Shown in pieces: positions 15,138-60,566 of a stretch of 64,000 bases of DNA. The position numbers were made by a program, and so were the translations under genes. Numbering within the stretch: position 1 is the first letter of the stretch; each line of letters starts with the position of its first letter. The stretch lies in contig CBDDHT010000001.1 of the NCBI GenBank assembly GCA_965228615.1, positions 242,371 through 306,370 on the forward strand, written 5' to 3'. The DNA comes from Methyloligellaceae bacterium (GTDB lineage: Bacteria > Pseudomonadota > Alphaproteobacteria > Rhizobiales > Methyloligellaceae). The notes under the pieces were generated by a model, which saw only the letters and a program-made list of their open reading frames with translations, searched no databases and was not told the origin of the DNA.

Positions 15138-15178
15138 TTCCATTCCTCCTTCTCGTAAAGCGGACTCACTGTGAGGCC

Positions 15179-17428: not shown

Positions 17429-17492
17429 GGTCAGCAACGAGACCTCCGAATAATCACCCTTGCAGCAATAAAGAGGCCGCTGAACAACGACC

Positions 17493-36724: not shown

Positions 36725-39157
36725 TCACTTCTTCACGCCGGGAATCTTCGTCATCGTAATCGGCGTCGTGACGCCATCCACATGATAGGTGTGGCACAGA
36801 AGACAATCTTCGCGCGCGACATTGTTCCCATGGCATTCGCTACAGGTCTGTTTTTTTACGGGCTTGAAGTTGGAGCGAAAGTTCTTCGGATCATGCGCCT
36901 TGTAGCTGTCCATGAACCCCGCCTTGTCGTCCAGCGCGTGACAGGTCAGGCACCCGCTCTTGCCGGCAACCAGCCCGAAATGCGGTTCATGATTGAACGC
37001 CGTGAACTTGCTCGCCCGAGTGTTGAGCGATGACGGGCTCCAGTTGACGCGGCGACTCTCGCCTTTGCCCTGATCCACACTGTGGCATTTGGTACATTGA
37101 CCCTGAGCGTCCTTGCTGCTGAGGAGTGCGAATACGGGAGCGACAAGATCGAGCTCCTTAGGACCTGAAAGCCGCCCGGAGAAATCCAGCCAGGAGCGCA
37201 AGAATCCATCGGCATGTCCTGTGGGCTTATAAAGAATCGCGTAGTCCATCCGATACCAGCCACCGAACTCGGCCCAGCTCTCAGGATCGACGGTTGTCGT
37301 ATCACTGGCGCGATCGATCTCCGAGGGCTCTTCTCTTGCCTCGGTTTCTTGAGCGGCCGTTTCGGGCTTCGATTGTTGATCCGGTTCCGCCGCTTCAACC
37401 GGCTCGTCTTCGGGTTTATCGCGTTGTTCTGTGTCTTCGGCACTGTCCGTGTTCTCGGCAGGTCTGTCACCCTTGACGAGATTACCGAACGCATCGATCC
37501 GCCAACGTTCCGACGCCACTCTTGTGCGGTGGCGCGAGGGCTTGGTCTCTATCCGCGATTCTCTCTTAGGTGCTTCTTTGCCTGGCGTAGCAGCGGGCGG
37601 TGCGGTTGTGTCTTTGTCTGGCTCAGGCGTATCGGCGGCACCTGCCAGTCGGTCTCGCATTTCCTGGCCAAGATTGGGGAGCCATTCGCGCTGAGCGTTC
37701 ACGAAAACGTCGTGCGGCATATTAGCCGTCAGTTTCGCGATCAGGTCGGCGTCGATCTCGGCTTCGGACGCTGCTCCAATCTTGTTCAGCACTTGCGACA
37801 TCTTTGATGTCACGAGTGAATAAACAAGGGATTTGATTTCCCAAACCAGGCGTGTGACGGCTTTCAGTTCCAGATCCGATGCTTCGGTCAAATCGAGCAG
37901 GTCGAGATCAGCGATTGTCTGGAGCATCGCGCGTCGCTCTTCATCACGCCCTATGAGCAGCTTCATCAAAGGCGTTATTTCCGCCTCCGATTCAACTGGC
38001 CAAGTACCGATCTGCGCATTCTTCTCCTTCAATGTCTCGACATCGAGACCGGGAAGCGTAAGGAGCGCGATCCCTTTTGGCCCTGTGGCGCGGTCGTCAC
38101 CGACGATCTGGCCGAGATGGCATGAGGAACAAGCCTCGGCAAAGGGTTTGACGGCCATATGCCGGCCTTCCGTGCCGCTCGTGTGGCAATCGGCACAATC
38201 ACCGGGAACGGACTCTTTTTCTTTACCGCCTTTGGCTGTCAGTTCGGGGAAGTGCTTTCCGAAATGACCGCTATGATCGAACGCAATCCGCGTGCGCCGG
38301 CGGAACGGGAAATTGTCGAATTCGGGGTGGTCTTTGCTGAAACTGCTGAATTGCATCTTGTGGCAGGTATGACATCGCGCATCGGACATGGTCGTGAGAT
38401 CGACCATTTTTCCCTGATGCTCCTGATGGCACGAGGCGCAGAAGATGTCGCTTTTTCCAGAGGCGTCGATGGGGAACAAGGTGCTGGACAATCGTGCAAA
38501 GGCAGATGCGGACTTCGATGTAACCTCCGGCTCGAACGACCTACTGATCTGCACCAGCTGCGCTTCGCTCAATCCATGCGGTTTCAGCTCCGAGCCCGGC
38601 ATTTTGTGGCATGTCAGGCACGCCCGACTGTCTGCTGTTGAATCCGCTGTGGCCACAATTGAATGGATCCAGCCAAGCTGGCCGTCTCCGACATTCGTGT
38701 GGCAACTCTTACAGTCACCAACCGGGCCGTGTGCTGTCGTGAGCGGTCCTGGGCCCAGAATCTTCGGGTCTTGTGCATATGTTAAGAGCAGTGCGACGGC
38801 GCCCGCCGATACGGCTGCCACCCATTTCGCCACGAGTTCCCGCCTCGCACGGAGTGTGCGGACCGGCTTGCATGGCGGCTCGGCAATCCGGCAGCTTCCG
38901 TCCTCGTTGGGACCATCGGCACAGGGGCCGCCATCGGCGTCGCGGCGCTGGCAATGCCATTCCGAACCGCTCTTCTCGGGCTCACAGGCAAAGCGCGAAC
39001 CGCAGCGCCCACGAGCACTCGGTCCCGCTCGGCAGGCCTCGTTCGGACCGAGGCGCCCACACATCCAGGCGTGGACAGCGCGGTCCTGGCTCCTGGGGCC
39101 GGCCTTCGGTTTGCGGTTACGGAACAGCTGAGGAATACGCATAGACAGCTGCCACAT
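36725..39157 (-). CDS. membrane-anchored decahaem c-type cytochrome
   Basis: Ten CXXCH motifs (CKSCH, CLTCH, CASCH, CHTCH, CADCH, CSSCH, CTKCH, CLTCH, CSECH, CLLCH). One TM (VAAVSAGAVALLLTY) follows a Cys-rich N-terminal segment. Start is uncertain (39157, 39142 or 39064). Confidence 0.8.
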   Translation of the reverse strand: MWQLSMRIPQLFRNRKPKAGPRSQDRAVHAWMCGRLGPNEACRAGPSARGRCGSRFACEPEKSGSEWHCQRRDADGGPCADGPNEDGSCRIAEPPCKPVRTLRARRELVAKWVAAVSAGAVALLLTYAQDPKILGPGPLTTAHGPVGDCKSCHTNVGDGQLGWIHSIVATADSTADSRACLTCHKMPGSELKPHGLSEAQLVQISRSFEPEVTSKSASAFARLSSTLFPIDASGKSDIFCASCHQEHQGKMVDLTTMSDARCHTCHKMQFSSFSKDHPEFDNFPFRRRTRIAFDHSGHFGKHFPELTAKGGKEKESVPGDCADCHTSGTEGRHMAVKPFAEACSSCHLGQIVGDDRATGPKGIALLTLPGLDVETLKEKNAQIGTWPVESEAEITPLMKLLIGRDEERRAMLQTIADLDLLDLTEASDLELKAVTRLVWEIKSLVYSLVTSKMSQVLNKIGAASEAEIDADLIAKLTANMPHDVFVNAQREWLPNLGQEMRDRLAGAADTPEPDKDTTAPPAATPGKEAPKRESRIETKPSRHRTRVASERWRIDAFGNLVKGDRPAENTDSAEDTEQRDKPEDEPVEAAEPDQQSKPETAAQETEAREEPSEIDRASDTTTVDPESWAEFGGWYRMDYAILYKPTGHADGFLRSWLDFSGRLSGPKELDLVAPVFALLSSKDAQGQCTKCHSVDQGKGESRRVNWSPSSLNTRASKFTAFNHEPHFGLVAGKSGCLTCHALDDKAGFMDSYKAHDPKNFRSNFKPVKKQTCSECHGNNVAREDCLLCHTYHVDGVTTPITMTKIPGVKK

Positions 39158-39932: not shown

Positions 39933-41555
39933 CTACGCCCGTGCGATCCAGTCGTTGAGCGTCCCGGTATCGCTCATGTCGATCCGTATGAGTGCGCCAT
40001 GCGGGCAGGCTCGCTGACATGCCGGTCCGTTGGTCTGCCCGGCGCAAAAATCGCACTTGGTAGCGCGGAGAATTTGCGAACCGTCCGTATCAATATGCCG
40101 TGTCCCGTTGGCGTCGCGGACGGCTTCCATCCGGATATTGCCGTAGGGGCAATTGCTTGCGCAGGTTGCACAGCCGACGCACGATGCGTCATCGATTACG
40201 ACACCGCCGCCGTCGGTTGCCCGCTGGATCGCGCCGGTCGGGCATCCAATCAGGCAGACCGGGTCGACACAGTGCATGCAGGCATTCGCAATCATGAGGT
40301 TTCCATGCGTTGGGCCGTGCCGGACAAAGCGCGGAAAACCGGCATGGGTCGCGGCGCAGGCCCGCACGCAATCGTCGCAGTCCACGCATCGGGTGGTATC
40401 GATCGCCATTGCCCGCGTTCCATTGACGAAGCGGTTGTCGACGAAGAAGTCCATCATGGGCTGGGGAAGGTTTGACCTCTCGCTCGCTGACTGCCGCGAT
40501 CTTTGACGGTCATTGGATCTCGACGTGCCGGTTGTCTCAAGAATTGGCTCGGCGACCGGGCCCGGTATGCGAATGACGTTGGCAAAACCCATCGCCCTGA
40601 GACTGTGCGGTGCGCGCGGCGCGTCGATCGACAGTCGGCTTGTAGCGATTTCGTCGTGTCCGAATATCTCGCCCGCTTTCAGATAACCCGTCGTTCTCTC
40701 GCCATTTCCGAAGGGCTGACTGAGCCGCGCAAACCCGGCTTGGAGAAGGAGAATATCATCGAGATAGTGTCCCTGCTCGACGATCATGGGTTCGCTGTTC
40801 AAGATTGCAGACCGGGCATCATTGTCTTGCCGCGCGCGCTGGAATATGTGCGACCAGCTGAAGTCACCGTAGGTCTCGACACGGCAGAAACCGGCAATAG
40901 TTTCCAGGGTATCGTCGTTGACGTCTGCCAATTGCAACCATGACCGCAGACCGCTTCTGAGGCTGCGCTCGCGGTAGTGTCGATCAATGACGGTCCGGAA
41001 AGATGCGGACCAGTCGCGAAGGTCGCGAAGTGCAGCCCAGCGCAGCTCCAGCAGTTCGGTCCGGTCCTCCGCGACGACCATCGTATGGCTCCGAGGACTT
41101 CTCGTCATCGCCTCGGTGACACCGAAAACCTCGCTCGCGGCCACGATGTCCTGGGACTGTTGTCCGGTGGGTCTCGACGCTGGCCCAGTGGGCTTCGGCT
41201 GCTTCCAGACTTGTTTGATCTGCAGCCAGGTCTTTTTCTCGCTCGCAGTTTCCTGGGGAACGTCATTCGTTTTGAGAAAGGGAGACAAGCGCTCAACCGA
41301 TCCGCGCAGAACAAGAAATACCGAATTGCCATAGTTGCCCTGTCGAAAGACAACGTCTCCCTTTGATGCGCGCAAGACACGCGTATCGTTGGCCAGGATA
41401 TGATCGAGCGGAAGATCGGCCGGAAAATCATCGCCATCGACCTCACTGAACAGAGGCAATCTTCTGAGTTGAGCGACATCTCTCGCCGACAACGGCGCAT
41501 GACCGTACGGTTGATCCCAGCGGCGCGGCCGTCTGACGATGCGGGCTTGAGCCAT
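39933..41555 (-). CDS. two cyclic-nucleotide-binding domains fused to a 4x[4Fe-4S] ferredoxin (NrfC/DmsB-like) domain
   Basis: cNMP-binding-like segments (VVFRQGNYGNSVFLVLRGSV.. ; ..GYLKAGEIFGHDEI). C-terminal CVDCDDCVRAC, CMHCVDPVCLIGCP, CVGCATCASNCP and CDFC..CQRACP. No Tat signal. Confidence 0.75.
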   Translation of the reverse strand: MAQARIVRRPRRWDQPYGHAPLSARDVAQLRRLPLFSEVDGDDFPADLPLDHILANDTRVLRASKGDVVFRQGNYGNSVFLVLRGSVERLSPFLKTNDVPQETASEKKTWLQIKQVWKQPKPTGPASRPTGQQSQDIVAASEVFGVTEAMTRSPRSHTMVVAEDRTELLELRWAALRDLRDWSASFRTVIDRHYRERSLRSGLRSWLQLADVNDDTLETIAGFCRVETYGDFSWSHIFQRARQDNDARSAILNSEPMIVEQGHYLDDILLLQAGFARLSQPFGNGERTTGYLKAGEIFGHDEIATSRLSIDAPRAPHSLRAMGFANVIRIPGPVAEPILETTGTSRSNDRQRSRQSASERSNLPQPMMDFFVDNRFVNGTRAMAIDTTRCVDCDDCVRACAATHAGFPRFVRHGPTHGNLMIANACMHCVDPVCLIGCPTGAIQRATDGGGVVIDDASCVGCATCASNCPYGNIRMEAVRDANGTRHIDTDGSQILRATKCDFCAGQTNGPACQRACPHGALIRIDMSDTGTLNDWIARA

Positions 41556-41780
41556 TTTCCCTCCTAGATGCTTTGTTCCCGACGGGTCGGCCGCTGCCGT
41601 TCAAACGTTGGGAAAATTAGGGAGATGAGACTCGCGTGATGCACCCTTCGTGCACCCCGCTATTCTCTCACTCTAGCAATATCTATAGGTCCTTCTTTGG
41701 CCGCTTTGCGTGATTGCAGAGACCATAGTGGGGCAACAAATGGATCGACCCATGCCTGTCATGCATTGTGCCTGTCACGT

Positions 41781-42830
41781 CTATTTCACAGGCTTGCCTT
41801 TGTATTTCTTCGGAAGCGGAACGAGAGCGTCGATGCCCGCAAACCTCTTGCCGTCATATTTCGCGACGATCGTCAAAGCCTGCTCTGCAATCTTGTCGGC
41901 CGCCGCGGACAAAGCTTTGTTGTTGTTGAGTTTTAGTCCGGCCGATTTCGAAATGCCGACGATCGTGGCCAGCTCCGGGACATTGGGGAGCGCCTGGGAT
42001 ACGGCGGCCATCTTCTTGCGAGCGGCGGCCGCCCGGCGCGCCATCTTCACCGCGTAGGATTTGCGCTCGGTCGCCACGCCGACCGCGCGCAGGGCCGTCT
42101 CGAGTTCGACGGCAACGCCTATGATATAGAGCATGCGTTTTCGGCCGGGACTGGCTTTCGTATTCGACTTGCCTTTGGAGTACCAAAGGTTGTGTCTCAC
42201 TTCACCTTGAGACCAGGAGACGAGTTCGAATTCGCTTCCAGCCGGATGGCCGCCGACATTGACCAGCTTTTCCTGCGGGACCACATGGCAGCCATAGCAG
42301 TTCTTCGCGAGCGCATAGGTGGCGCTCGGCCGGATCATGCCGAGTTTTTCCGATTTCTTCCAACGTGATTTCGCTTCGGCCTTGCTCTCGGTTTCTTTCT
42401 TCTTACCGCTAAACTCGCTGTGAAGCTTCTCCCAATCCTTGCCGCCGCCGTGACAGGATTCGCAGGAGATGCCGGCAATTGTCTTTTTTCTTTTGCCGGT
42501 TTTCTGCGTCGTGAAATGACAGTTCAGGCAGAGACTTTTCGCTTTGATGCGCTTGATGCCCATTTTCTTGGCAATGCGCGAAGCTTCCTTGTTTCGCGGC
42601 ATCTCGCGGAAAGTCTTGAAGTGGTGTGTGCCGCGCCAAACGGTCGTCTCCTCCTTGTGACACTCGCCACAGGCATTAGGGCCGGTGACCTTGGTCGGAT
42701 CGGTATCCGATCGCGCAAGGGCGAGTGGTGCAAACTCGAAATTTGCCCCCCAAAGCATGAGATGTAGAAGCAGTATCGTGATCGTCGATAGACTTGATTT
42801 CGTAAGACCCAATGCCATGTCTCTCTTCAT
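41781..42830 (-). CDS. secreted tetrahaem c-type cytochrome
   Basis: Signal peptide (SLSTITILLLHLMLWG..ALA). Four CXXCH motifs (CGECH, CLNCH, CESCH, CYGCH). Confidence 0.8.
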   Translation of the reverse strand: MKRDMALGLTKSSLSTITILLLHLMLWGANFEFAPLALARSDTDPTKVTGPNACGECHKEETTVWRGTHHFKTFREMPRNKEASRIAKKMGIKRIKAKSLCLNCHFTTQKTGKRKKTIAGISCESCHGGGKDWEKLHSEFSGKKKETESKAEAKSRWKKSEKLGMIRPSATYALAKNCYGCHVVPQEKLVNVGGHPAGSEFELVSWSQGEVRHNLWYSKGKSNTKASPGRKRMLYIIGVAVELETALRAVGVATERKSYAVKMARRAAAARKKMAAVSQALPNVPELATIVGISKSAGLKLNNNKALSAAADKIAEQALTIVAKYDGKRFAGIDALVPLPKKYKGKPVK

Positions 42831-43428
42831 GTTGCCGTCGCAGAATGTGTTACTGACCGGGGGCTATCACGCCACTCGGCTGCGAAATATCGTTCTGTTT
42901 CAAGGCACTGAGACGAGACGGTTTTCGGTTGTGGGCTTGACGGTGAACGCTGATCAGGCCTTTCCGCCAAGCGACCACAACCAGGCACGGGGCACATGGT
43001 TTGTGCAGGTGCAAGGACAGTTGCCCCGAGCCGAACCGAGTCGTGCCGAACCGAAGCTCGAAACGAGAATCCCCTGCGCCCGATAAAGGCACCGGTGCAT
43101 CTCGTCAGCACGCTATGTCGAACGATAGATTTGTGGCGCCTGGCTGAACTCTTGTGGTTGCAGCAGGTTCATGCCGGCGCTGTGACTTCCACCAAATGCG
43201 TTGCGCAAATCCCTCCAGAGCTTTGGAGCCGTGCCGTCTCTCAATTCATTTCGGGAGTTTTTGCTCCCCGGTTTTCGTTGCCGCGGCACGGCGTTGCGCA
43301 CGCGCTTGCCTCGTCGTCTGCGGCAGTTGAAGCCTATCGCGAGAATGTGGCGTCAAACCGGCTTGTCATAGATGATTTCTATACAACGAAAGGCGACTTT
43401 CAGACGCGGAGTTGGAGGGCAGCAATAT

Positions 43429-44382
43429 CTATGAATTCTGCTGTCTCTGATGCTGGGTAAAGGCGAGCGTGGCCAATGCAAAATCTGCCGGCGCGTAACC
43501 GCGATATATGAATGCCGTGCGATCGTTCTTACAGTTTCGCCCGGCAATCTCATTCTGTATGAGTCCTTCGACATCGCCATGGACGAGATCGGCAGGCGCA
43601 AGCTTGTCCTTCATGACGGCTTCCTGGGCCATGTCGTCGATGACGATCCGGTCGAAGGTCGAAAGGCTGTCGGTTACCCAGGGGTCGCCAAGGTCGGTCA
43701 GGGCGGCAAAGGCGCCGGATTTGATCGACGATGCATCGACAAAGGGCGTGCGACCGGGAACACGCGTGATCGCGCTAACGACCAAGTCTGCCTCTCGGAG
43801 AGTGTCACCGGGTGTTTCGGCAGTCGTGTAGTCGAGGCCGAGCGCGTTAGCTGTATCTCTCAACGCGGCGATATTCGTTTGCCCGCGACCGAAAGCGACC
43901 ACGGATTCGATCGGCAGGAATTCGCAAAACGCTGCGAGATGGTTTCTTGCCTGGACGCCGCAACCAATGAAGGCGATGACACGGGCGTCCGGTGATGCCA
44001 TGCGCCTGGCGGCAACAGTACTCAGGGCTGCCGTTCGCTTCGCGGTGATCCAGTTGCCTTCGAGAAGAGCGAGCGGAATGCCGGTCTCACTATCCTGCAG
44101 TGTCACGATCGAATTCATCAGCGGGTGACCCTGCTCGGGATTCCTTGGATTGAGCAGAAGCGATTTGGTCGCCAGATAGGGAGGATCGTCGGCGACCGCC
44201 ATTGTCGACATCACGTAGCGACCGTCGGGGGTCGTAAAGGATGCTTTCGGCGCGCTCCAGGCCTGAGAGCTCGCACGGGCATGGATCGTTTTTTCGATTT
44301 CATCGGCGATTTCGCTGAACGACAGATTGAGCGCCGAAAGAACCTCTTCCGAGAGATAGGGGACGCTTTCGGGCTCGGCCAT
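43429..44382 (-). CDS. ornithine cyclodeaminase/mu-crystallin family protein
   Basis: Rossmann segment VIAFIGCGVQARNH and the overall length/layout of the OCD family. Confidence 0.75.
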   Translation of the reverse strand: MAEPESVPYLSEEVLSALNLSFSEIADEIEKTIHARASSQAWSAPKASFTTPDGRYVMSTMAVADDPPYLATKSLLLNPRNPEQGHPLMNSIVTLQDSETGIPLALLEGNWITAKRTAALSTVAARRMASPDARVIAFIGCGVQARNHLAAFCEFLPIESVVAFGRGQTNIAALRDTANALGLDYTTAETPGDTLREADLVVSAITRVPGRTPFVDASSIKSGAFAALTDLGDPWVTDSLSTFDRIVIDDMAQEAVMKDKLAPADLVHGDVEGLIQNEIAGRNCKNDRTAFIYRGYAPADFALATLAFTQHQRQQNS

Positions 44383-44483
44383 GTGTCGTTTCCGCAGATT
44401 GGGTCAGGAACGCAATAATGCCATAAGAGCACAGCTCGCAAGTGCAATGAGATAAATGCACAGTGGTTGGGGATGGGAACGCT

Positions 44484-46160
44484 ATGGAACCGATGCGCAA
44501 TGCCGAACTCATACTGACAAACGCGAAAATCGCGACACTCGATTCCGACGATCGCATTGCTTCTGCCCTCGCTATCGCGGACGGCCGGTTTCTCGCAGTC
44601 GGCAGCGATACCGAAATCGAAAACCTGGCGACATCCGCTACGCGCAGAATCGATGTTTCGGGCAAGCTCGTCGTTCCGGGGCTCATTGACGGCCATGCTC
44701 ATATGGACCGGGAAGGCCTCAAGGATGTGCTGCCGTCATTGTCGGGCTGCGTATCTATCGCCGATATTCTGGCTCGGATCGCAGAGCTGGCATTGCGGAC
44801 ACCGCCTGGCGAGTGGATCGTCACCATGCCGATCGGTGAGCCGCCCTTTTATGAAGGCGTGCCGGATAATCTGGCGGAGAAACGCGTTCCGACCCGCCAG
44901 GAACTGGACAGTGTCGCACCCGACCATCCGGTCTATATCCGTCCGATCTGGGGCCATTGGCGCAACACGCTTCCGCTCGTGTCCATTGCCAACTCGCTTG
45001 CCCTGGAACGTGCCGGGATCACACGCGATACGCAGGTGCCGGTGCCGTCGATCCAGATCGACAAGGATCTGGCAACCGGCGAGCCGAACGGGATCTTCTA
45101 CGAGTTCACCTACAAGCCGATTGTCGAAAAGACGCTGATGAACTGCATCCCGCGTTTTACGCTGGATGATCGGATTGCAGGCCTCAGACGCTCCATGGCT
45201 GTCTATAACGGATATGGCACCACGAGCGTGTTCGAAGGCCATGGCATCGCCGGCGAGGTCTTTGCGGCCTACCAGCATCTGCGCGAGGAGGGCCCGCTCC
45301 CCGTCCGCGCCTCGCTGATGTTCAGCCCGGCATGGTCGTCGACGGACAAGGAGACGGTTCTCGATTTCCTGGTCGACTGGACACGCTGGCTGGCACGCCG
45401 CGGTCTCGGTGACGACTATCTGCGGATGGCGGGCATGTACACCGAGTCCGATTACTCCGAGGAGAACCGCCTTCGCGCGCTTTGCGGTCCCTACACCGGA
45501 TGGGCCGGTTTCAACTTCGACAGTTGCCTGCCGGAAGACGTCATGCTCGAAATGATGGTCGAGGCCGCGCGCAATGGCATCCGCATCGGCTCGTTCTCGC
45601 CGCGCATTCTCGATTTGTACGAGAGCGTCAACAAACGTGCCCCGATCGACGACCAGCGCTGGCTGATCGAACATGTCGGCATCTTCTCAGAGGATGAAAT
45701 CAAGCGCGTGCGCGACCTCGGCCTAGTCTTGCAGGCCTATTCCAGCAAATGGATTGTGCAGGATGGGGAGGGGCTGAGGGCGGACCTTGGCGATAACGGC
45801 GTGGAGCGTGTCCTGCCGCTTCGCGATCTGATCGAGGCCGGAATCCATGTGTCGCTCGCAACCGACAATGTGCCGCCGACAATGTTCGAGCCGATCTCAC
45901 ACGCCGTGTCGCGCAAGACCGATGCCGGCAAGATGCTTGGGCCGGGCCAGCGCGTCAGCCGGATGGAAGCGCTCGCCTGTGCAAGCAAAGAGGGAGCCTG
46001 GCTCAGTTTCGAGGAAGATCAAAAAGGCACCATCGAAACCGGGAAGCTTGCCGATCTCGCAATCCTGTCCGACGATCTGCTGGAGACGGAAGAGGAGAAT
46101 ATCCCGGACATTTGCGCTGATCTGACGGTAACGGGCGGTGCTGTCACCTTTGAGCGGTGA
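44484..46160 (+). CDS. metal-dependent amidohydrolase (amidohydrolase-3-like)
   Basis: N-terminal HxH motif PGLIDGHAHMD and C-terminal ..SLATDNVP. The ATG at 44484 (MEPMRNAELIL) is preferred over the GTG at 44463. Confidence 0.8.
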   Translation: MEPMRNAELILTNAKIATLDSDDRIASALAIADGRFLAVGSDTEIENLATSATRRIDVSGKLVVPGLIDGHAHMDREGLKDVLPSLSGCVSIADILARIAELALRTPPGEWIVTMPIGEPPFYEGVPDNLAEKRVPTRQELDSVAPDHPVYIRPIWGHWRNTLPLVSIANSLALERAGITRDTQVPVPSIQIDKDLATGEPNGIFYEFTYKPIVEKTLMNCIPRFTLDDRIAGLRRSMAVYNGYGTTSVFEGHGIAGEVFAAYQHLREEGPLPVRASLMFSPAWSSTDKETVLDFLVDWTRWLARRGLGDDYLRMAGMYTESDYSEENRLRALCGPYTGWAGFNFDSCLPEDVMLEMMVEAARNGIRIGSFSPRILDLYESVNKRAPIDDQRWLIEHVGIFSEDEIKRVRDLGLVLQAYSSKWIVQDGEGLRADLGDNGVERVLPLRDLIEAGIHVSLATDNVPPTMFEPISHAVSRKTDAGKMLGPGQRVSRMEALACASKEGAWLSFEEDQKGTIETGKLADLAILSDDLLETEEENIPDICADLTVTGGAVTFER

Positions 46161-46559
46161 GCACGACGTTCGTGGAAGTGATTGTCTTGGCCCGTGACGG
46201 TTGCGATCTGCCGGTATCGCTTTGGTACCGTCACACTTGGCGCCGCTACTCGTTCGGTAGCTTAATGCTCCAAGCACTCATTTAGACGCAGTGCGGGAGG
46301 GGCTGGAAGGGGGGTTGGGTTATCCCGCGGTCAAGCGCCTACAAGGGGAAGGTAGGCGGGGTTTCCTAACACTTCGTTAGGATCGTCCCGATGCCGGCGG
46401 CGAAGAAGGACAAGTCCAGAATCCCTTGCCAATCGCCCATAGCAAGGTCCCGGACTTGATCCGGGACCCAGTGCCAAATCCCGGATTGTGCGCGCTCGCC
46501 CCGGGGGCCCGCATCAAGTGCGGGACGTCTCTCTCAGATGTGCTCGAAAGCAGGAAGCT

Positions 46560-47087
46560 CTAGCCGGCCTGACGAATGGCCGAGAGGATATCTTGCATCG
46601 CATCGCGAGCCAGTGCCTCGAGCTCATCGCCCGTCCGGTTCTGGATCGGGTGTTCCAGCCATACAATGGCGGGCTGAAAGCCGAGCGTCTTGCTTTGCGC
46701 ATCGACCGCGCTTTCGAACTCGGTCGTCACCACGAAGCAGCCGGGCAGACCGCGCGCGTCCATTTCTTGTATGTCATGCAGACCGCACGACGTGCAGGAG
46801 CCTCAATCGGCGAGGGCTTGGACGACGACGTCCGTCTCTTTCGCGATTTGCGCGAGGAGCGCCGGATCGGCGACCTTGGCATTGGTCGGCTTGGCGTAGC
46901 GCCGCGTGTCGATGCCGCGCTCGCCCAGGAGACGCTCGACATGATCGAGGAAGTCGTCGCTGCGGGTCTTGCCGATATCCATGAGAGCGACAGTCTTGCC
47001 CTCAAGCGTCTCGGGCGGTTGACGGCGGGGCCTTTCGAGAGGCGCGTCTTCCGCCGTCGGGTCGTAGAGTTTTGTCGTGCTGCTCAC
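46560..47087 (-). CDS. UGSC-type selenoprotein (in-frame TGA at 46803..46805 read as selenocysteine)
   Basis: The two ORF-track pieces (46803..47087 and 46560..46763) are in the same frame and are separated only by TGA plus 13 sense codons. The junction reads ..VVQALAD-U-GSCTSCGLHD. A SECIS-like hairpin follows. GTG start with GGGAG 8 nt upstream, overlapping the upstream stop (GTGA). Confidence 0.7.
46773..46791 (-). other. SECIS-like hairpin GUCGUGC-GGUCU-GCAUGAC
   Basis: A 7-bp stem (one G-U pair) with a 5-nt loop, starting 11 nt after the UGA. The loop GGUCU occupies positions 22-26 counted from the U of UGA, the same as in the E. coli fdhF SECIS as I recall it. Confidence 0.65.
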
Positions 47088-48523
47088 AATATAATCTCCC
47101 GCGTAACAGGTTGGAGTTCATCTTTATTGCGCCCGCCGATCCAGCCGGCCATGATGCCGGAAAAGAGCCCGGCGGGTCCTCCGGCACGGACGATGAGAAG
47201 CCCGTCCCGGTGGAACTTGGGCAGCATCTCGTCCGCGCAGCTTTCCGGCATGCCTTCGCCAACACCGTTCGCGCCCTGAACCAGATCCCGCCCCGGGCGC
47301 AGGAGCGCATCATACAATTCTTTGCTGATCTGCGCCCTGTCCCAGCCTGCATTTCGATAGATCGCATAATGCTCAGGCGACAAGACCAGGACAGCGTTGC
47401 ACCACTCGCAAAGTTTTGGATGCACGACCGCGGCGAGCGACATGGCAAGCGAGCGGGTCAACTCTTCCGGCGTTCGCGAACGCTGATCCACAAAGCCCTG
47501 CACCCCGTCGCCCTGAAAGAGTGTAATGGCGCTCTTTCCCGGCGCGATCCCGCGCGACACCGAGAGCGGCTCCCATTCCGGATCGCTCTCATCCTCGGCG
47601 AAGCAGAAGGTATATTTGCCGGGTGTTCCTAGCCCCGCCCGGTCGATTTCTCCAGGCCGCCCGCCGCCAATATTGCGAACGATCAGGTTCAGGGCGCGTC
47701 CGATCGTAGCGTTGGCGCGATTGCCCTGCCCAAGCGCGTTGAAGCCGCCATTCATCCCGATCGAACGGGCGATGGGTCCGTTGACGATGATAATGGGACT
47801 ACAAGGTGCTGTTGAGCAGGTCAGCCCATGAAGCGTGAACATCGGGTCGAGCGCCGTTTCGACCGCGGCGATCACAACGGGAAAATACTCAGGCTTGCAT
47901 CCGGCCATGACAGCATTGATGGCGGCCTTCTCGACCGTTAGCGGTGCCAGGTTGGGCGGGATCATACCGATCACATCGTCCGGCGCACGGTTGGTCCCTG
48001 CAAGCATGCGCAAGAGTCGCGGCCCGGTCGGCGGCACCACCGGCAATCCATCGGTCCATCCGCGCTCGAAGGCCTGTTCGATCTCATCGTCATACTCGCC
48101 AATGTCGACCGAACGCGAGCGAAGCGGCAAGTTTCCGAACCGCGCCTGCAAGACCTCCTGCACGCCCGGATCGATATTCTTGGCGCCGCATCCCGGCTGG
48201 TTCTCCGGGAGATCGGCGCCGAGCTCGTCCTTGCCAAGGAAGTCGCGCCACTCGTTGCGGTTCCATCCGAACACACGGGCTGTTTCGTCCCCAGACGCAT
48301 CGAAACGGATCAATGTCGGAACGACTTCGACGCCGAGTTTGAATGAGGTTTCCAGCGTTCTGTCGTCAATAATGGAAGGTACGCCCTCAGGAAACGCCGG
48401 ATCGTCCTGGGAAATGATCTCAATGCCAGAGCCGTTTGCCGCGAGGTCGCGCAGAACCGGCACTACTAGTTGGCAGGTTGGGCAATCTTGTTTGACAACC
48501 GCGATCAGGCGTTCATTGGGCAT
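47084..48523 (-). CDS. thioredoxin-fold (CPTC) N-terminal domain fused to an uncharacterised ~350-aa conserved domain
   Basis: N-terminus MPNERLIAVVKQDCPTCQLVVPVLRDL (CxxC in a thioredoxin-like context). Translationally coupled to the selenoprotein gene. Confidence 0.7.
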   Translation of the reverse strand: MPNERLIAVVKQDCPTCQLVVPVLRDLAANGSGIEIISQDDPAFPEGVPSIIDDRTLETSFKLGVEVVPTLIRFDASGDETARVFGWNRNEWRDFLGKDELGADLPENQPGCGAKNIDPGVQEVLQARFGNLPLRSRSVDIGEYDDEIEQAFERGWTDGLPVVPPTGPRLLRMLAGTNRAPDDVIGMIPPNLAPLTVEKAAINAVMAGCKPEYFPVVIAAVETALDPMFTLHGLTCSTAPCSPIIIVNGPIARSIGMNGGFNALGQGNRANATIGRALNLIVRNIGGGRPGEIDRAGLGTPGKYTFCFAEDESDPEWEPLSVSRGIAPGKSAITLFQGDGVQGFVDQRSRTPEELTRSLAMSLAAVVHPKLCEWCNAVLVLSPEHYAIYRNAGWDRAQISKELYDALLRPGRDLVQGANGVGEGMPESCADEMLPKFHRDGLLIVRAGGPAGLFSGIMAGWIGGRNKDELQPVTREIIL

Positions 48524-48669
48524 GCGGCAACTATTGTAAGGTGAAGTTTATGGTGATCAGCACTGGTTGAAATGATTGTAGCCAAACAGGTCATTGGTTC
48601 AATGCAAACAAGTCATCCACTATGGGATATGAGCTTTCCGCCCTCTTTTCGAGGGGGAGGCGACGATTC

Positions 48670-48990
48670 AGCTATAATATCTCTCAATTCATAGTTTTGG
48701 TATGGCGAATTGGATTCAAGATGATTGGTCAAACTGGTCTTTCGGGTTGTGCTTGCGATCAATTTCACGTTGAAAATTGGTCATCTACTAGCTCGCACTA
48801 CATCACAAGGTGGGCTGCCGTTCTTGGACCGATCAGATCGCTTCAATGCCTTGCTCGACGGCTTGCGGAAGATCTCGAAATCCAATGAGGCCAGTAACCT
48901 CTCAAGTGGTTGGTCACCACAGCTCAATTGCTGCAAACGCTCATCAAGACGAAAAAGAATTTTAGGCTACCCCGCTATGGCCACGCCCAC
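48670..48990 (-). pseudogene. IS5-family transposase relic (N-terminal part only, with stops)
   Basis: The minus-strand translation ILFRLDERLQQLSCGDQPLERLLASLDFEIFRK..SDRSKNGSPPCDVV..* resembles the N-terminal domain of rhizobial IS5-family transposases (..GDPLERL..DFE.FR..GRPPYD..). This is recalled from memory. Confidence 0.55.
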
Positions 48991-49291
48991 GAATGCCAGG
49001 GATACAGTGAGCCAGATAGCGGGCAATTCGCGGTAGATGTTTAGAGGTGTCCGGCTGATGGCTCACGGTTGAGGACGGCCGCTTCCCAACCGTACCGGCG
49101 GATATTTCAACCAAGGGCGAGTGCCGGGTAGAAGTGGCTATGATATATGATGCTTAAGCGTATCGGCCGAGGGTTGCGTCGCTGGAGGGGACATCGATGC
49201 TTTTGAGTGAATCGCTAAGCATACTGCAGGGTCGCGTCCGGGCGCCCGATGTCATAGCTGTGAGAGCAAATGCCAAACCATATCGACGGAA

Positions 49292-50752
49292 CTACCGAAC
49301 TTCACAAATCCGGTCACACGCACTCCGACCGAGCCTAGCCAGCCTGCACTGGTTCACGATGCAGCGGCAGCGATCCTTACATGCCGGCGTCGCCGACCCG
49401 GTTCCGTTACACAAGTTGCTATGACACGCCGCCTCGCTCGCAAAGGTGTAGGCCTGGGTCGACACCGAGGAAGACATCCGACCCGCCAAGCTTCTCGGCA
49501 ATGCCCTGTTGCGATCAGCACCAAGCGCGCGTCCGCTGATGCTGCGGGTCAAGGCCTGCGCCTGTTGGGCTTCTGCGAGTTCCTTGGCCAACCGGCCGCG
49601 TTCATTCACAAGCCCGATTAATTCGGTTTGCGTTTCGATCAGCTCCGCCCGATTTTTTGTGTTGTCGATCCTTACCTTGAAGATTGCCGTGGGTAGCTTG
49701 ATGATCGCATCCGCCACCGTCAGCGGTATCTTGACAAATCCGGCTAGCTCACTGCCCTTTTCGATGTCGACGTCGACAAGCGCTCCGGCGTTGAACTTCA
49801 GGACGGTCTTACGCGTAGCGAAGAATGTCCGGTCAACGCCAATCGCGAGAATCGGTGACTTGTTCTCAAGTGGGACGGCTTTTTGTTTGCGTAGGTTCCA
49901 TCTCACCTCACCTTCGTGCATCGGACTGACATACTTTGCGTTGATGTTGCTCTTGACATAGACCATCAGCGTATAGTTGAGCCGCGGGCGATAGAGAATA
50001 CCCAGTGAGGAGTCAACCGGGGAAATCGTTGGCGCGCGTCGATAATATTGTGACGCCAGAATCGCGTTTTCACGCGATCTGCTGGAGGTCCTTTTCGCGC
50101 CGCGATACTTGGCAAGGAAACCCAAGGGATTCTCGCAATATTCGCCGACTTTGAAATAGCCCATGTCGATGACCCAATCGGCTTCTTGCAGGAGCAGGCA
50201 AAAGCCGAGGTCGTTCAGTGAATCATTGAGAACTGCCGTCTCCATTTCGTCGAACGGGTCGAAATCCGCCTTAAAGGGTTGGACGAAGATACCCCCCACT
50301 GCTCTGGTCCGGAAACTCCTGTCTCCGGATAACCCGGCGAAAACGGTTTCCACCAATGTGTTGGCAATCTCCGGCGTCTTGTCCTCGGCGAAGGACGAAA
50401 TCTCCTGGAGGATCCCCTTCGTTTTTCTGACCGTCAATCGCTCATTGTGCACGGGCGACGTTCTGAAATTCAGGCAATAGCCATGGCGCCGGTCCGGTAC
50501 GGCATGGACCTCCACGGCGTTGAGGACCAGGTTTCCTGATGGCTGCTCCCTCGACTCTCCTTCAGGCGGGGTAACTCTAACGCGAATGACACCTTTAGAT
50601 AGAAAATAGGCGCCTGCGTCTTCTCGGCATGAGACTTCTGATCTGAATTCGCTGATCTGTGTGCTGCCGACCATTGCGCACCCTGCCAGCGAAACAACAA
50701 AGCCGGCAGCTACAATCGAGCCCAGACGGGCATGAGTTCCAAGATTCATCAT
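49292..50752 (-). CDS. lipoprotein A1 of unknown family, with 8-Cys C-terminal tail
   Basis: The start MMNLGTHARLGSIVAAGFVVSLAGC (lipobox) gives an ATGA overlap with the B1 stop. Close paralogue of A2. Confidence 0.75.
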   Translation of the reverse strand: MMNLGTHARLGSIVAAGFVVSLAGCAMVGSTQISEFRSEVSCREDAGAYFLSKGVIRVRVTPPEGESREQPSGNLVLNAVEVHAVPDRRHGYCLNFRTSPVHNERLTVRKTKGILQEISSFAEDKTPEIANTLVETVFAGLSGDRSFRTRAVGGIFVQPFKADFDPFDEMETAVLNDSLNDLGFCLLLQEADWVIDMGYFKVGEYCENPLGFLAKYRGAKRTSSRSRENAILASQYYRRAPTISPVDSSLGILYRPRLNYTLMVYVKSNINAKYVSPMHEGEVRWNLRKQKAVPLENKSPILAIGVDRTFFATRKTVLKFNAGALVDVDIEKGSELAGFVKIPLTVADAIIKLPTAIFKVRIDNTKNRAELIETQTELIGLVNERGRLAKELAEAQQAQALTRSISGRALGADRNRALPRSLAGRMSSSVSTQAYTFASEAACHSNLCNGTGSATPACKDRCRCIVNQCRLARLGRSACDRICEVR

Positions 50753-52209
50753 TGGGATGCTCTCTTCGCGAGTTCTGCGACATTGACGCCCGGACAAAGG
50801 AAGTCCGGCTCCGTCTCAACTCTGATCTTGCCGTCCTTGCCAAGACCGGTCGTCCTGATGTTTGCCAGCGGCTGGCTGCTGAACTCAGCTGGCGCAACAT
50901 CAGCCGGCGGGCTTGGAGCCCTGAGAGCTTTCAGGTGGTTGATTTGCGCGGTAATCAGCCTTTGCTGTGTCTCAACGAGTTGGGCCCTGTTCGACGCGCT
51001 GCTGATCCTGAGCTGTAGAATGCGGGTCGGAAGGGCGACGATGCTCTTCACGACGACAAGCGGTATCTTGACTGCCTCCACAACGGGCGCTGTTTTGCGA
51101 ATGCAGACATTCTGCAGAATCCCGCCGATGAAGACGAGATCTGTGCGGCGCTCCGCGAAGTAGGTGCGCGTCAGGCGGACGGCGACGAGTGGCGAAATGT
51201 TCTCAAGCTGGACTTCTTTTTTGATCTTGAGCCGCCACTCATGTCCTGATTTTTTTTTATCCTTCCTTCGGCCGAACACATAGAGCGTGTAGGACATTTC
51301 CGGTCGGTAGAGAATCCCCTTCGGCAACTCCTCCAAAGGCGTCCGATACTCGTCAAGCAACTCGTGGAAAAAGCGACCACCCACGACTGGGGGTGCCTTC
51401 TTAATCGTCATGATGGGCTTGTCACAGTAATCGTCGATGCGCGCACTTTGGAGATCGAAATTGTAGCCACCCAAGACGGCGCAGAACCCGAAATCTCTCA
51501 AGGCCTGGTTTGCTGCGGCGGTTTGATAAGGCTCGAACGGGTCGAACTCGATGTCCAACACCGTTTCATTGTCACCGAACGTCTGCAGGCGGGCGCTGCC
51601 GCTTAAACCGGCGCCAATATCGAACAGGGACTTGACCAGATCCTGGGCAATCTGCGCGCTACGGTCGATCGCTTTGGAGGACACAATGAACAAAAGGTTG
51701 GTCGTCTTGAGCAGACTTGCGTCCGACTTCCCCGGTATGTCGCTCGCGTCCGCCTCCGGAGTTGTAGCTTTGGCGTCCTTACCCGAAAACAATCCCGGCA
51801 ACGTCTCGCGCAATTCGTCCGGAATAGCGAGCGCCTTACGAACGTAGATTGTATCATCCGCCGTGATCGACCCGCGATATCTTAGGCAATAATTGTGAAG
51901 GCGATCCTCTCTGCGAACTTGCTTTATTTCCTGCAGAACGTATTTTTCCTCTCCCTGCTTTTTTATTTTGAATTTCAGCAGTGATTTCGGCAGTGAGTAA
52001 GAGCCTGCATTGGACTTGCAGGCAATCGGAACCGCTTCGGACCCGACAATCCGCTGGTCTGTCCGCATCATGTCGCATCCAAACGAACCGGTTAAGAGAG
52101 CGGCGAACAGGGCTGCCTTGCTGATGGTCTTATTGGTCTGTTTACGCATGACATCTTTGGATCGCGGCGAACACGCTCCTTCAGCCTGCCGTTTGGTGCC
52201 GAGGATCAT
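50749..52209 (-). CDS. lipoprotein B1 of unknown family (distant homologue of A1/A2)
   Basis: ATGA overlap with the P1 stop. Signal ..KAALFAALLTGSFGC. Close paralogue of B2. An internal start at 52149 (MRKQTNK) is possible. Confidence 0.75.
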   Translation of the reverse strand: MILGTKRQAEGACSPRSKDVMRKQTNKTISKAALFAALLTGSFGCDMMRTDQRIVGSEAVPIACKSNAGSYSLPKSLLKFKIKKQGEEKYVLQEIKQVRREDRLHNYCLRYRGSITADDTIYVRKALAIPDELRETLPGLFSGKDAKATTPEADASDIPGKSDASLLKTTNLLFIVSSKAIDRSAQIAQDLVKSLFDIGAGLSGSARLQTFGDNETVLDIEFDPFEPYQTAAANQALRDFGFCAVLGGYNFDLQSARIDDYCDKPIMTIKKAPPVVGGRFFHELLDEYRTPLEELPKGILYRPEMSYTLYVFGRRKDKKKSGHEWRLKIKKEVQLENISPLVAVRLTRTYFAERRTDLVFIGGILQNVCIRKTAPVVEAVKIPLVVVKSIVALPTRILQLRISSASNRAQLVETQQRLITAQINHLKALRAPSPPADVAPAEFSSQPLANIRTTGLGKDGKIRVETEPDFLCPGVNVAELAKRASQ

Positions 52210-53477
52210 TGTTGGGACCCTTGTGTTGGTGTTATCTCTCCGTCGCAGACGCAGTCTGGCTGCTGGCCGTCAACGACGGGGTCTGGCAACGGCGCTACCT
52301 TGTCGAGCCACGCGCGGACCTGCGGCGTGATAACGCTGTAGATGCCACCGGGACCGCACCTTGCGCCGGAGAAGGCACGGGACGTGATTGCGGCGACGTA
52401 ATAGTTGCTGCCGTCATACAGATAAGCCGGACCGCCGCTATCGCCGCGGCACGTGTCGCGCTGGTAGTACCAGTCGTTGAGGATCATTTCTCGTCCCGGG
52501 ACACAATCCACATAGAGCAGTCCGCCATCGTGGCCGTCGCAGAGCTTCGATCCGATCGCAATGGCAGCGTGGAATTTCGGGCGATCGCCGAAACCGCGAT
52601 CGGTACGGGAATTAATCCCATAACCGACAACAGTCAGGGCGTTCGTCGTCCGCGACAGATAAAGTTCAGGTGGAGCCAGAACAGCCGGTTTCACATTCTC
52701 GGGAGCCGGCCGCCGTAAGAACACCACGGCGATGTCGAAGCCGTACCAGAGACGAGACGTCCGGCTGTACTTCTTGCAGAACCTCTGATCGAACAGCTTG
52801 GTCTTCGTCAGGTCGACATCTCGTCCGACTTGGAGGGCCGCGCTCAGTCTTGAAGGAGCGTTTGCGCCGAATATCGCCAGCAAACGGACCCCGGACAGGT
52901 TTTGCCCCCCAAGCAAGTCACACACACAGTGCCCTGCCGTCAGCACGGCTTCTTCATTAACCAGAACGCCTGTGCACGTGCCCATGGCTGTGCCACCCAT
53001 ATAGGGGCGCAGCGCCACGGCGTGCAGAAAGAAGTCATTCTCCGGAGTGATCCGCTCACCTCCGATGACGCGAAGCCCCAGCTCCGCATCCCGAAGGAAG
53101 CTGTCCACATTGCGACGTGCGACCGGATCCCGATCGAAGGGCGATCGCCGCTCCCGCGCGGCGCGGAGCGCGCCTTTGGTCGGCATTCTGGTCTCATCCG
53201 GCCCACGCTTCACATCACCGAAGACGGCGCGGAGGCCGAACCGCAGCCGCGCCATGTAGGCTGCAGGGTCCCGCTCGTCGAAGGAGCCGACATTCTCCCT
53301 GAGCTTCCTGATGGCGTTGGCTTGGCGAGGTTGGTAGCCCGGCACTCTGAACTTGGCCGTCGCCAGTCTTTCTCTGCGCAAAACGATCGACCGGTCCTGA
53401 GCATATGCGACAATCGTATCGGCAAGAGAGACCGTCACGAGCGTGGCCAGGAGCATAATGGAAAGGTGTGTTTTCAT
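52206..53477 (-). CDS. secreted trypsin-like (S1/chymotrypsin-fold) serine protease zymogen P1
   Basis: Start is trimmed to MKTHLSIMLLATLVTVSLA (signal), 1 nt after the A2 stop. Triad LTAGHCV / DIAVVF / GDSGGP. S1-pocket Asp (RDTCRGDSGGP). Activation-type junction LGLR-VIGGE. Confidence 0.85.
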   Translation of the reverse strand: MKTHLSIMLLATLVTVSLADTIVAYAQDRSIVLRRERLATAKFRVPGYQPRQANAIRKLRENVGSFDERDPAAYMARLRFGLRAVFGDVKRGPDETRMPTKGALRAARERRSPFDRDPVARRNVDSFLRDAELGLRVIGGERITPENDFFLHAVALRPYMGGTAMGTCTGVLVNEEAVLTAGHCVCDLLGGQNLSGVRLLAIFGANAPSRLSAALQVGRDVDLTKTKLFDQRFCKKYSRTSRLWYGFDIAVVFLRRPAPENVKPAVLAPPELYLSRTTNALTVVGYGINSRTDRGFGDRPKFHAAIAIGSKLCDGHDGGLLYVDCVPGREMILNDWYYQRDTCRGDSGGPAYLYDGSNYYVAAITSRAFSGARCGPGGIYSVITPQVRAWLDKVAPLPDPVVDGQQPDCVCDGEITPTQGSQQ

Positions 53478-53478
53478 G

Positions 53479-54948
53479 TCACTCTCCGGCCACACAGAAA
53501 CTGTCACAAGCGCCCTGACCGATGCCGTTCGGAATACACTGGGTGAAAATGCATTGGCAGCGACTCTTGCAGGCCGCTGAAGGCGCGCCATTGGCACCAC
53601 ATTCGCTCCTCTGGCACTGCGCCTCAGACGCATAAGTGTACGGATCTGAGGGGGGCGAAAGTGACAAGGACCGGGCCAGGGAGCGCCCGAAGACAAGCGA
53701 GCCGCCAGTGGCGACCAAGCCGCTTGCCGCCGCGGCGGTCACTGCCCGTGCCTGCTGTTCTTTGGCAAGGTCGCTAGCCAGCTTCTGGCGTCCGTGCTCC
53801 AGCTTGATCAGTTCGGTCTGGGCCTTGATCAGTTCGGCGCGATTCTTCGTGTTGTTTACTCTCAGCTGCAGGATCTTCGTCGGCACCTTGATGATGGCGT
53901 CCGCGATCGTCAGCGGAATCTTGATGAAACCAACGAGTTCGCTGTTCTTTTCGATGTCCACATCGACAAGTGCGCCGGCATTGAACCTCAGGACGGTCTT
54001 GCGCTTGGCGAAGAACGTCCGGTCGACTCCGATTGCAAGGATCGGTGACTTGTTTTCCAGCGGAATGGTTTTCTGCTTGCGCAGGTTCCATCGCACCCCG
54101 CCAGGATGCATGGGACTGATATACTGGGCGTCGATGTTGCTCTTGACATAAACCTTCAGGGTATAGGTCAGGCGCGGGCGATAGAGGATGCCTCGACTGG
54201 AGTCGACAACGCCCGCGCCCGGCGTTTCTCTGAAGGTCTGTGATGCCAGAATTGCACGCTCGCGGATCGCCATAGGTGTCAACTTGGCGCCGCCACGCTT
54301 GGCAAGGAACGTCAGGGGATTATCGCAATACGCACCAGGATCGAATCTGCCCAGGTCAATGACCCAATCGGCTTCCCGCAGCATCATGCAAAAGCCGAGG
54401 TCATTCAGTTCGTCATTGAGAAGGGCTGTCTCCGTTGCGTCGAACGGGTCGAAATCCGCCTTGAAGGGTTGCTGGAATTCGCCGGCGGCGACGCGTGATT
54501 TCGCAAGAGCTTCTCCAGGCAAGTCCTTAAAGACCTGGTCCACCAGGGTGCTGAGCGCGTTTGGCGTTTGGTCCTCGGCAAACGACGAAATCTCCTGCAA
54601 CAGGCCCTTCGTCTTCCGGACCGTCAAGCGCTCATCGTGCAGCGGCGATGATCGAAAGTTCAGGCAGTAGCCATGCCGACGGTCCGGAACCGCATGAACA
54701 CTTACCTCCTGGAGGACAGTGTCGCCATTCTCCACGCTGACATCGACGCTAACGACTCCCTTGGACAGGAAATAGGCACCGGCGTCGTCCCGGCACGTCA
54801 CGTCCAACGTAAGATCACCCAACTGGGTGCTGTCCACCATGGAGCAACTCGCCAAGACCGCGGCCAACGGCAGGGCCGTGAGTGCCACCCCGAGATTGAC
54901 GCGAGAACGCGGCCACCACCAACACCGACTAGTCACGGCCCAGCTCAT
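53479..54948 (-). CDS. lipoprotein A2 of unknown family, with 8-Cys C-terminal tail
   Basis: Signal ..LPLAAVLASC. ATGA overlap with the B2 stop. Collinear with A1. Confidence 0.75.
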   Translation of the reverse strand: MSWAVTSRCWWWPRSRVNLGVALTALPLAAVLASCSMVDSTQLGDLTLDVTCRDDAGAYFLSKGVVSVDVSVENGDTVLQEVSVHAVPDRRHGYCLNFRSSPLHDERLTVRKTKGLLQEISSFAEDQTPNALSTLVDQVFKDLPGEALAKSRVAAGEFQQPFKADFDPFDATETALLNDELNDLGFCMMLREADWVIDLGRFDPGAYCDNPLTFLAKRGGAKLTPMAIRERAILASQTFRETPGAGVVDSSRGILYRPRLTYTLKVYVKSNIDAQYISPMHPGGVRWNLRKQKTIPLENKSPILAIGVDRTFFAKRKTVLRFNAGALVDVDIEKNSELVGFIKIPLTIADAIIKVPTKILQLRVNNTKNRAELIKAQTELIKLEHGRQKLASDLAKEQQARAVTAAAASGLVATGGSLVFGRSLARSLSLSPPSDPYTYASEAQCQRSECGANGAPSAACKSRCQCIFTQCIPNGIGQGACDSFCVAGE

Positions 54949-56384: not shown

Positions 56385-56411
56385 TGTTGCGAAACGCCCG
56401 CGCGTGGATCG

Positions 56412-57617: not shown

Positions 57618-57631
57618 CGCTTGCAGTTTTA

Positions 57632-57656
57632 ATATTTCATTCTATCTATGAAATAT
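57632..57656. promoter_or_regulatory. 9-bp perfect inverted repeat ATATTTCAT-N7-ATGAAATAT
   Basis: Lies 15 nt upstream of the longest possible start of gene C, at the edge of a ~700-bp AT-rich divergent intergenic region. Confidence 0.4.
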
Positions 57657-60511: not shown

Positions 60512-60566
60512 CGGGACGGCTGTTTTGTCCCTCACCTGATCGACGGACCTCAGCGGCAATCGCGTC

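Follow-up and report, generated by a model that had tools for sequence, protein, structure and literature searches.

The 64,000-nucleotide (nt) stretch of Methyloligellaceae bacterium DNA analysed here (contig CBDDHT010000001.1; hereafter the window, to which coordinates refer unless another locus is named) carries on its minus strand, at 47087..46560, what comparative sequence evidence establishes as a single gene encoding a UGSC-family selenoprotein of 175 residues. The same comparisons establish membership of the family, a column in which selenocysteine (Sec) and cysteine alternate, selection on an element of the selenocysteine insertion sequence (SECIS) type, translation past the internal UGA, and an obligate partner gene. 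The reading as a whole – a UGSC selenoprotein decoded by the SelB/tRNA-Sec route via an in-frame hairpin, with a flavodoxin-like fold and a place in a redox module with its partner – is in our judgement very probably correct.

In translation, the frame running from 47087 to 46560 comprises 176 codons, ends in TAG and contains one internal stop, a TGA at 46805..46803. A mechanical list of open reading frames (ORFs) divides it into 46803..47087 (94 amino acids, aa) and 46560..46763 (67 aa). A preliminary description of this DNA had noted that the two pieces share a frame with nothing other than sense codons between them, and this is so: the TGA is the sole internal stop. Translated across the TGA the junction reads ..DVVVQALAD*GSCTSCGLHDIQEMDARG..; read with Sec it becomes ..QALAD-U-GSCTSCGLHDIQEMDAR, containing ALAD-U-GSCTSC. 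When 171 in-frame TGA junctions flanked by long open stretches were compared, the GC content at third codon positions was highest for this one, on either side. The features of the gene are given below, where L001 denotes the nearest relative, a chromosome from a Methyloligellaceae metagenome-assembled genome (MAG; OZ245780.1) with 95% aa identity.

46560..47087, minus strand: UGSC-family selenoprotein gene, 175 aa including the predicted Sec95, GTG start, TAG stop; PF24696 and NF041046 matches, end-to-end homologue alignment.
46803..46805, minus strand: predicted Sec95 codon, an in-frame TGA in the motif D-U-G-S-C-T-S-C; Cys in 21 and TGA in 59 related loci, TGA also in L001.
46773..46791, minus strand: SECIS-type hairpin, +15..+33 from the U of UGA; local folds, synonymous-site conservation.
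46560..46802, minus strand: coding part after the Sec codon, residues 96-175; substitution pattern against L001.
47084..47087, minus strand: GTGA overlap of partner stop and UGSC start; read from the sequence.
47100..47096, minus strand: GGGAG, 8 nt upstream of the GTG; read from the sequence.

Residues 96-175 are called separately by ORF finders or missed altogether.

Membership of the UGSC family, as the preliminary description had proposed, is supported by two profile matches, for which U was replaced by C in the 175-aa product. The match to Pfam PF24696 (UGSC) covers residues 7-171 and reaches 126.2 bits against a cut-off of 25; that to NCBIfam NF041046, the UGSC family (seleno)protein, reaches 122.2 bits (E = 1.7e-35), the nominal cut-off being 125. 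Two proteins that NCBI names UGSC family (seleno)proteins score 120.2 and 121.2 bits with the same tool; the listed cut-off is therefore not to be applied literally to hmmscan scores here, and because such named members score as they do we accept membership at 122.2 bits. A large protein search returned 188 full-length homologues, with identity up to ~55%. In 23 aligned homologues the motif D-C-G-S-C-T-S-C is invariant, and the alignment runs the full length of the protein, crossing the TGA of the window without a break; Cys-containing homologues thus have the expected C-G-S-C at precisely this column. The most conserved part of the family is residues 96-108 (GSCTSC..), the segment that separates the TGA from the next ATG downstream.

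The first reports of UGSC concerned Hyphomonas neptunium and ocean metagenomes (PMC1976440, PMC2398784, PMC13188914), and since 2008 UGSC-containing proteins have been listed with the most abundant selenoprotein families in aquatic metagenomes, with no function assigned (PMC2398784, PMC13188914). The family has thus been known since 2007-2008 (PMC1976440, PMC2398784) and is represented in Pfam and NCBIfam; the window gene adds a member to it. In nothing essential does that member differ: it shares both profile matches, the length of ~175 aa, the U/C-G-S-C-T-S-C column, the Sec/Cys dimorphism and the SECIS hairpin directly after the UGA. The subgroup formed by the window and L001 has Gly rather than Ser after the third Cys, giving the loop GGUCU and not AGUYU.

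The dimorphism was read from a genome scan that took one genome per species and recovered 80 related loci (L001 to L080). The codon in the Sec column is TGA in 59 of these and TGC or TGT in the remaining 21; the TGA-type loci span several bacterial classes and keep the frame intact.

A second line of evidence comes from the hairpin that follows the UGA. GUCGUGC/GGUCU/GCAUGAC, at 46791..46773, starts 11 nt after the UGA and occupies +15..+33 counted from its U. The stem has seven pairs (+15..+21 with +27..+33), one of them G-U (G18-U30), and the loop GGUCU lies at +22..+26 (46784..46780), placing G23 at 46783 and U24 at 46782: distance, stem and loop are all as first described. Local folds of 31-51 nt give exactly this structure, the 31-mer at -10.2 kcal/mol (z = -2.1). 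Among the 2022 TGA trinucleotides on the two strands of the window, that at 46805..46803 is the only one with a perfect 7-bp stem at +15..+33 together with G23/U24; shuffled windows contain 0.13 such sites on average.

A strong indication that this hairpin is under selection is the behaviour of its synonymous sites. TGA forms have in common, after the motif, TCG TGC AGT YTG CAY GAC. Across 60 unique TGA-type sequences the third positions +18, +21, +24, +27 and +33 are invariant, as are G23 and U24, and +30 is C or U, either of which pairs with G18; the same third positions vary in Cys-type sequences. Mean third-position entropy over +12..+33 is 0.29 bit in the TGA forms (n=60) versus 1.28 bit in the Cys forms, while the flanks of both groups lie at 1.4-1.6 bit. 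Moreover, TGA forms encode S/G-L-H where Cys forms encode S-T-H, which indicates that the protein sequence is fitted to the hairpin.

These codon choices bear on the possibility that a TGC or TGT was turned into TGA by faulty sequencing or assembly. A single base separates TGA from a Cys codon, but the independent assembly of L001 has the same TGA, and so do 58 further loci, all with SECIS-type codon choices that are absent from Cys forms; an error is next to impossible.

The hairpin had been described as fdhF-like. In the Escherichia coli element, according to a review (PMC8659212), the upper stem-loop measures 17 nt and lies 11 nt from the UGA; U17 is bulged out, and the loop contains G23 and U24. 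The fdhF sequence quoted in the preliminary description proved exact, being 100% identical within fdhF in 5412 of 5426 E. coli genomes; there, too, GGUCU stands at +22..+26. The two elements are alike in lying inside an ORF, in an upper stem 11 nt after the UGA, in the GGUCU loop and its register with G23/U24, and in the GCA after the loop. The window hairpin differs in having seven contiguous pairs without the bulged U17, which the E. coli element requires, and a loop of 5 nt instead of 6. The comparison with fdhF therefore stands for position and loop and not for the stem.

Evidence that the part after the TGA is translated came from L001, which is 90% identical to the window at the nt level over 8.1 kb (40561..48667) and has the identical TGA and hairpin. 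Downstream of the TGA the two differ at 12 nt, 11 of them at third codon positions, and two of the changes are nonsynonymous; when the same 12 changes are placed at random, amino-acid replacements are this rare in 0.04% of trials (P = 0.0004). This third-position bias argues that translation continues past the TGA in the lineage of the window.

It is against this background that two further explanations must be judged. According to the first, the TGA is a true stop, leaving a decaying pseudogene or a 94-residue N-terminal fragment, possibly accompanied by an independent 67-residue ORF. ORF finders and public gene calls do split the gene, with the 94-aa and 67-aa pieces on record, and the 64-kb window lacks Sec machinery. 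Set against this are the same TGA in 59 of the 80 related loci, across several bacterial classes and with the frame intact; the 11 of 12 downstream substitutions at third positions; the confinement of the hairpin's synonymous-site conservation to TGA forms; and the position of the family's most conserved residues, 96-108, ahead of the first downstream ATG. We give a true stop very little credence. According to the second, Sec decoding was recently lost in this lineage, so that a selenoprotein-like gene is no longer read through. Sec has often been converted to Cys in this family (21 of 80 loci), and the survey of sel genes covers the 64-kb window only. Nonetheless, at 90% nt identity the window and L001 both retain the TGA, the hairpin and an almost wholly synonymous pattern of downstream change, which would be unexpected if translation stopped at the TGA; recent loss is highly unlikely.

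Several observations weigh against the reading put forward here, and these deserve to be set out together. None of selA, selB, selC, selD or tRNA-Sec occurs within the 64-kb window, whose one tRNA is Arg-CCT. In a 76-nt context the hairpin is not the minimum-energy structure (z = +0.72), and the z-score at 41 nt (-0.65) is likewise weak, that of the 31-mer alone being notable; the early expectation that the region would fold into the element thus holds for 31-51 nt and fails at 76 nt, and thermodynamics alone is no argument. The hairpin gave no match to an Rfam SECIS family, either at the gathering threshold or at E <= 10. Where the E. coli element has its bulged U17, the window hairpin has a C paired with G31, and 29 of 29 aligned sequences are free of the bulge, a criterion that was defined for E. 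coli SelB and may not apply to other SelB proteins. No compensatory covariation was found in the stem: five of the seven pairs are constant and G18 is matched by either C or U, so covariation is lacking because the stem is almost invariant. Finally, P0357 and P0378, two proteins in which a UGSC domain is fused to the large domain of the partner described below, are without the Cys motif, so that the UGSC domain may serve a structural, non-redox purpose as well. The evidence for a SECIS is therefore the synonymous-site constraint confined to TGA forms, and it is by this that the SECIS reading of the hairpin is supported.

From this conserved RNA element we infer that the UGA is decoded as Sec by SelB and tRNA-Sec. 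The UGA might be read through by other means – a near-cognate Trp or Cys tRNA, or a reassigned code – and downstream conservation demands only read-through as such, although nothing specific speaks for these routes. Within the window TGA is the ordinary stop codon of the partner gene, nosZ and further long ORFs, and this counts against a reassigned code; homologues without the TGA have Cys in its place, the classic Sec/Cys pattern; and in its position and its G23/U24 loop the hairpin corresponds to a SelB-binding element. In addition, selB and tRNA-Sec adjoin the module in two TGA-type relatives, both Burkholderiales/Betaproteobacteria MAGs, where they lie immediately upstream of the partner-UGSC pair and divergent from it:

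L055: tRNA-Sec at 3-98, SelB gene at 1882-4179.
L063: tRNA-Sec at 402-497, SelB gene at 2462-4717.

Taken together, these points make read-through of another kind scarcely credible. A scan of all in-frame TGA junctions and SECIS-like sites found no other selenoprotein gene in the window.

A central issue is the partner. Directly upstream lies a 479-aa ORF (48523..47084) whose TGA stop overlaps the GTG start of the UGSC gene as GTGA:

47084..48523, minus strand: partner gene, 479 aa; thioredoxin-like domain, linker Cys112 and a domain that we call X.
Residues ~1-105, minus strand: thioredoxin-like domain of the partner, with CPTC (residues 14-17) at 48484..48473; sequence profile and fold.
48190..48188, minus strand: linker Cys112 of the partner, in the motif PGCGAK.
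47087..48076, minus strand: domain X of the partner, residues ~150-479 (~330 aa); no Pfam or NCBIfam match.

Coupling through GTGA to an upstream CPTC protein was part of the preliminary description, and both the overlap (47087..47084) and the CPTC at residues 14-17 are confirmed. That the partner is a thioredoxin-fold protein holds for its N-terminal domain; the protein as a whole is a 479-aa fusion of that domain with the large, unannotated domain X. The arrangement is strikingly constant. The partner stands directly upstream of UGSC in 79 of the 80 loci, the remaining locus being without upstream sequence, and in most of the loci with upstream sequence only a few nt separate its end from the beginning of UGSC. 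Every other neighbour is common to 13 of the 80 loci at most, so that the wider neighbourhood gives no pathway clue.

The part of the partner after its thioredoxin-like domain is highly conserved, and three cysteines are invariant in the partner alignment: Cys112 (PGCG), Cys209 (AGC.PEY) and Cys307 (FCFAEDE). A PDB sequence search with the partner matched thioredoxins only, at the N-terminus, and domain X has no sequence relative in Pfam, NCBIfam or the PDB. Beyond thioredoxins, structural comparison with Foldseek gave the partner only weak matches, to class I fumarate hydratase, at a probability of 0.77-0.93 with a template modelling (TM) score of ~0.2 and a root-mean-square deviation of 14-16 A; we do not rely on these. 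The partner's CxxC varies with the type of UGSC gene, being CPTC in 47 of 50 TGA-type loci with a readable motif and CETC or CDTC in 18 of 21 Cys-type loci. Given the exceptions, the pattern may reflect clade rather than direct tuning.

An exhaustive search with domain X returned 5540 representative clusters, and architectures were read for the best 150:

X alone: 94 of the best 150.
Thioredoxin-like or AhpC/TSA-like domain followed by X: 30 of the best 150.
UGSC-X fusion: 11 of the best 150.
X-UGSC fusion: 5 of the best 150.
Duplicated X: 10 of the best 150.

P0354, counted as X alone, has a thioredoxin-reductase domain after X in Pfam and NCBIfam scans. Four X-UGSC proteins stop one residue before the Sec column and five UGSC-X proteins start just after it, which would be the expected output of gene callers confronted with Sec-containing fusions. 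A UGSC/Unknown_1 fusion was mentioned in the 2008 Global Ocean Sampling paper (Figure S1), and the fusions of UGSC with domain X probably correspond to it.

The partner itself carries an in-frame TGA in 12 betaproteobacterial loci, at the column of Cys112 (..RPG-U-GS..), for which the window equivalent is the Cys112 codon at 48190..48188. The partner TGA positions are:

L002:4828, L004:2600, L010:4796, L011:4667, L014:4695, L018:4744.
L027:4582, L036:4901, L039:4895, L052:4892, L053:4895, L054:4895.

After this TGA, too, there is a conserved hairpin, CUCGAGCC/CGGGGU/GGCCGAG. Its third-position entropy over +15..+36 is 0.06 bit, against 1.1-1.26 bit in the flanks (12 loci). The combination of TGA and frozen hairpin indicates that in this betaproteobacterial clade both genes of the module are selenoprotein genes, and the use of Sec at the Cys112 column in 12 loci indicates that Cys112 of the window partner marks a redox-active position. 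No NCBIfam model matches the partner family, and among papers naming UGSC none was found to describe it; the betaproteobacterial selenoprotein form of the partner may be undescribed.

As to the UGSC product, an AlphaFold2 model of the window protein (mean predicted local distance difference test score, pLDDT, 88; predicted TM score 0.83) has five beta-alpha units, and on this model a flavodoxin-like alpha/beta fold is predicted. Sec95 sits between strand 3 and helix 3, and Cys98 and Cys101 lie in the first turns of helix 3. The best Foldseek matches are flavodoxins and flavodoxin-like domains, with TM scores up to 0.49 and no close relative; a PDB sequence profile search with UGSC gave no match. 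A thioredoxin-like fold was proposed for UGSC in 2008 (PMC2398784); such a fold, beta-alpha-beta-alpha-beta-beta-alpha with the redox motif where helix 1 begins, does not agree with the predicted model, whose five beta-alpha units are flavodoxin-like.

Two known systems invite comparison. The motif of GrdB is U-x-x-C-x-x-C (PMC13188914). UGSC resembles GrdB and PrdB (PF07355) in this motif, in the pairing of a small Sec subunit with a larger partner, and in the implied supply of electrons from a thioredoxin system. It differs in having no detectable sequence similarity to them, with no PF07355 match even at E <= 10, in a partner without a match to GrdE or PrdA, and in hosts that are mostly aerobic or facultative Proteobacteria and Bacteroidota, not amino-acid-fermenting anaerobes. 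The other comparison is with ArsC of the low-molecular-weight phosphatase type, which UGSC resembles in its flavodoxin-like fold and in a Cys or Sec at a helix N-terminus. Thioredoxin-coupled ArsC is a triple-Cys relay on a flavodoxin-like fold; by analogy, the three Cys/Sec residues of UGSC could form an ArsC-like relay reduced by a thioredoxin-type CxxC. The ArsC structure 1rxe is among the weak Foldseek matches to the UGSC model (rank 49, TM 0.32). Differences from ArsC are the lack of sequence similarity and of any arsenic-related gene context.

What might the module do? We propose that the UGA at 46805..46803 would be decoded as Sec by the bacterial SelB/tRNA-Sec route, directed by the in-ORF hairpin that presents G23/U24. 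In a module of two genes, UGSC would then provide the small redox subunit, of selenol/thiol type, its partner being the co-translated upstream protein with its thioredoxin-like CPTC domain and domain X; gene order, fusions and motifs point to a redox relay and to a physical interaction between the two. Sec95 would act as the nucleophile and be resolved as a selenenylsulfide with Cys98 or Cys101, and it would be re-reduced by the CxxC and Cys112 of the partner, with NAD(P)H as the ultimate electron donor and a flavoprotein of the thioredoxin-reductase type as intermediary. Domain X would be the catalytic part. More broadly, UGSC may be the small seleno/thiol subunit of a very widespread, uncharacterised two-component oxidoreductase in which a catalytic domain X recruits thioredoxin-like, peroxiredoxin-like, UGSC or thioredoxin-reductase modules by fusion or adjacency, the thioredoxin-X protein itself being a selenoprotein in one clade. 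This wider proposal is tentative, and we regard it as somewhat short of probable.

The surroundings of the module have features of their own. Several multihaem cytochrome c genes (MtrC/c554-like) and a gene for a cyclic-nucleotide-binding 4Fe-4S protein lie within a few kb, at 30529..32826 (+), 36725..39157 (-), 41781..42830 (-) and 39933..41555 (-); among the 80 loci these are not conserved beside the module in other genomes. Further away, at about 8575..17692 (-), is a nitrous-oxide reductase cluster comprising a nosR-like flavin mononucleotide/4Fe-4S protein, nosZ, nosD, an ATP-binding cassette (ABC) ATPase, an ABC-2 permease and ApbE. Synteny with L001 (40561..48667) ends just upstream of the partner gene, and the correspondence with L001 picks up again in a 75-nt match to the 3' portion of tRNA-Arg(CCT) (62691..62767). 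The interval between the break and the tRNA-Arg match defines a strain-specific segment of ~14 kb (about 48667..62660) beside a tRNA gene, for which no att-type direct repeat was found. The GC content of this segment is reduced, to 0.44-0.47, between 56 and 60 kb. Two diverged tandem copies (72-80% nt identity) occupy 49292..52209 and 53479..56384, each a pair of ORFs of ~480-500 aa without Pfam matches, and the segment also encodes trypsin-like proteases and a matrixin-like peptidase.

For annotation, the UGSC gene is a textbook example of how stop-codon-based gene calling cuts a selenoprotein gene in two. A public protein collection lists its 94-aa and 67-aa pieces as separate proteins of a 927,033-bp contig, so that the gene is mis-called in at least one public gene set; that of the L001 chromosome is likewise split into separate public proteins.

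On its own, the UGSC gene contributes little new biology. More worth following up than the gene itself are its partner, the domain fusions and the additional Sec site: they give concrete residues, and a protein pair, with which the function of UGSC can be tested.

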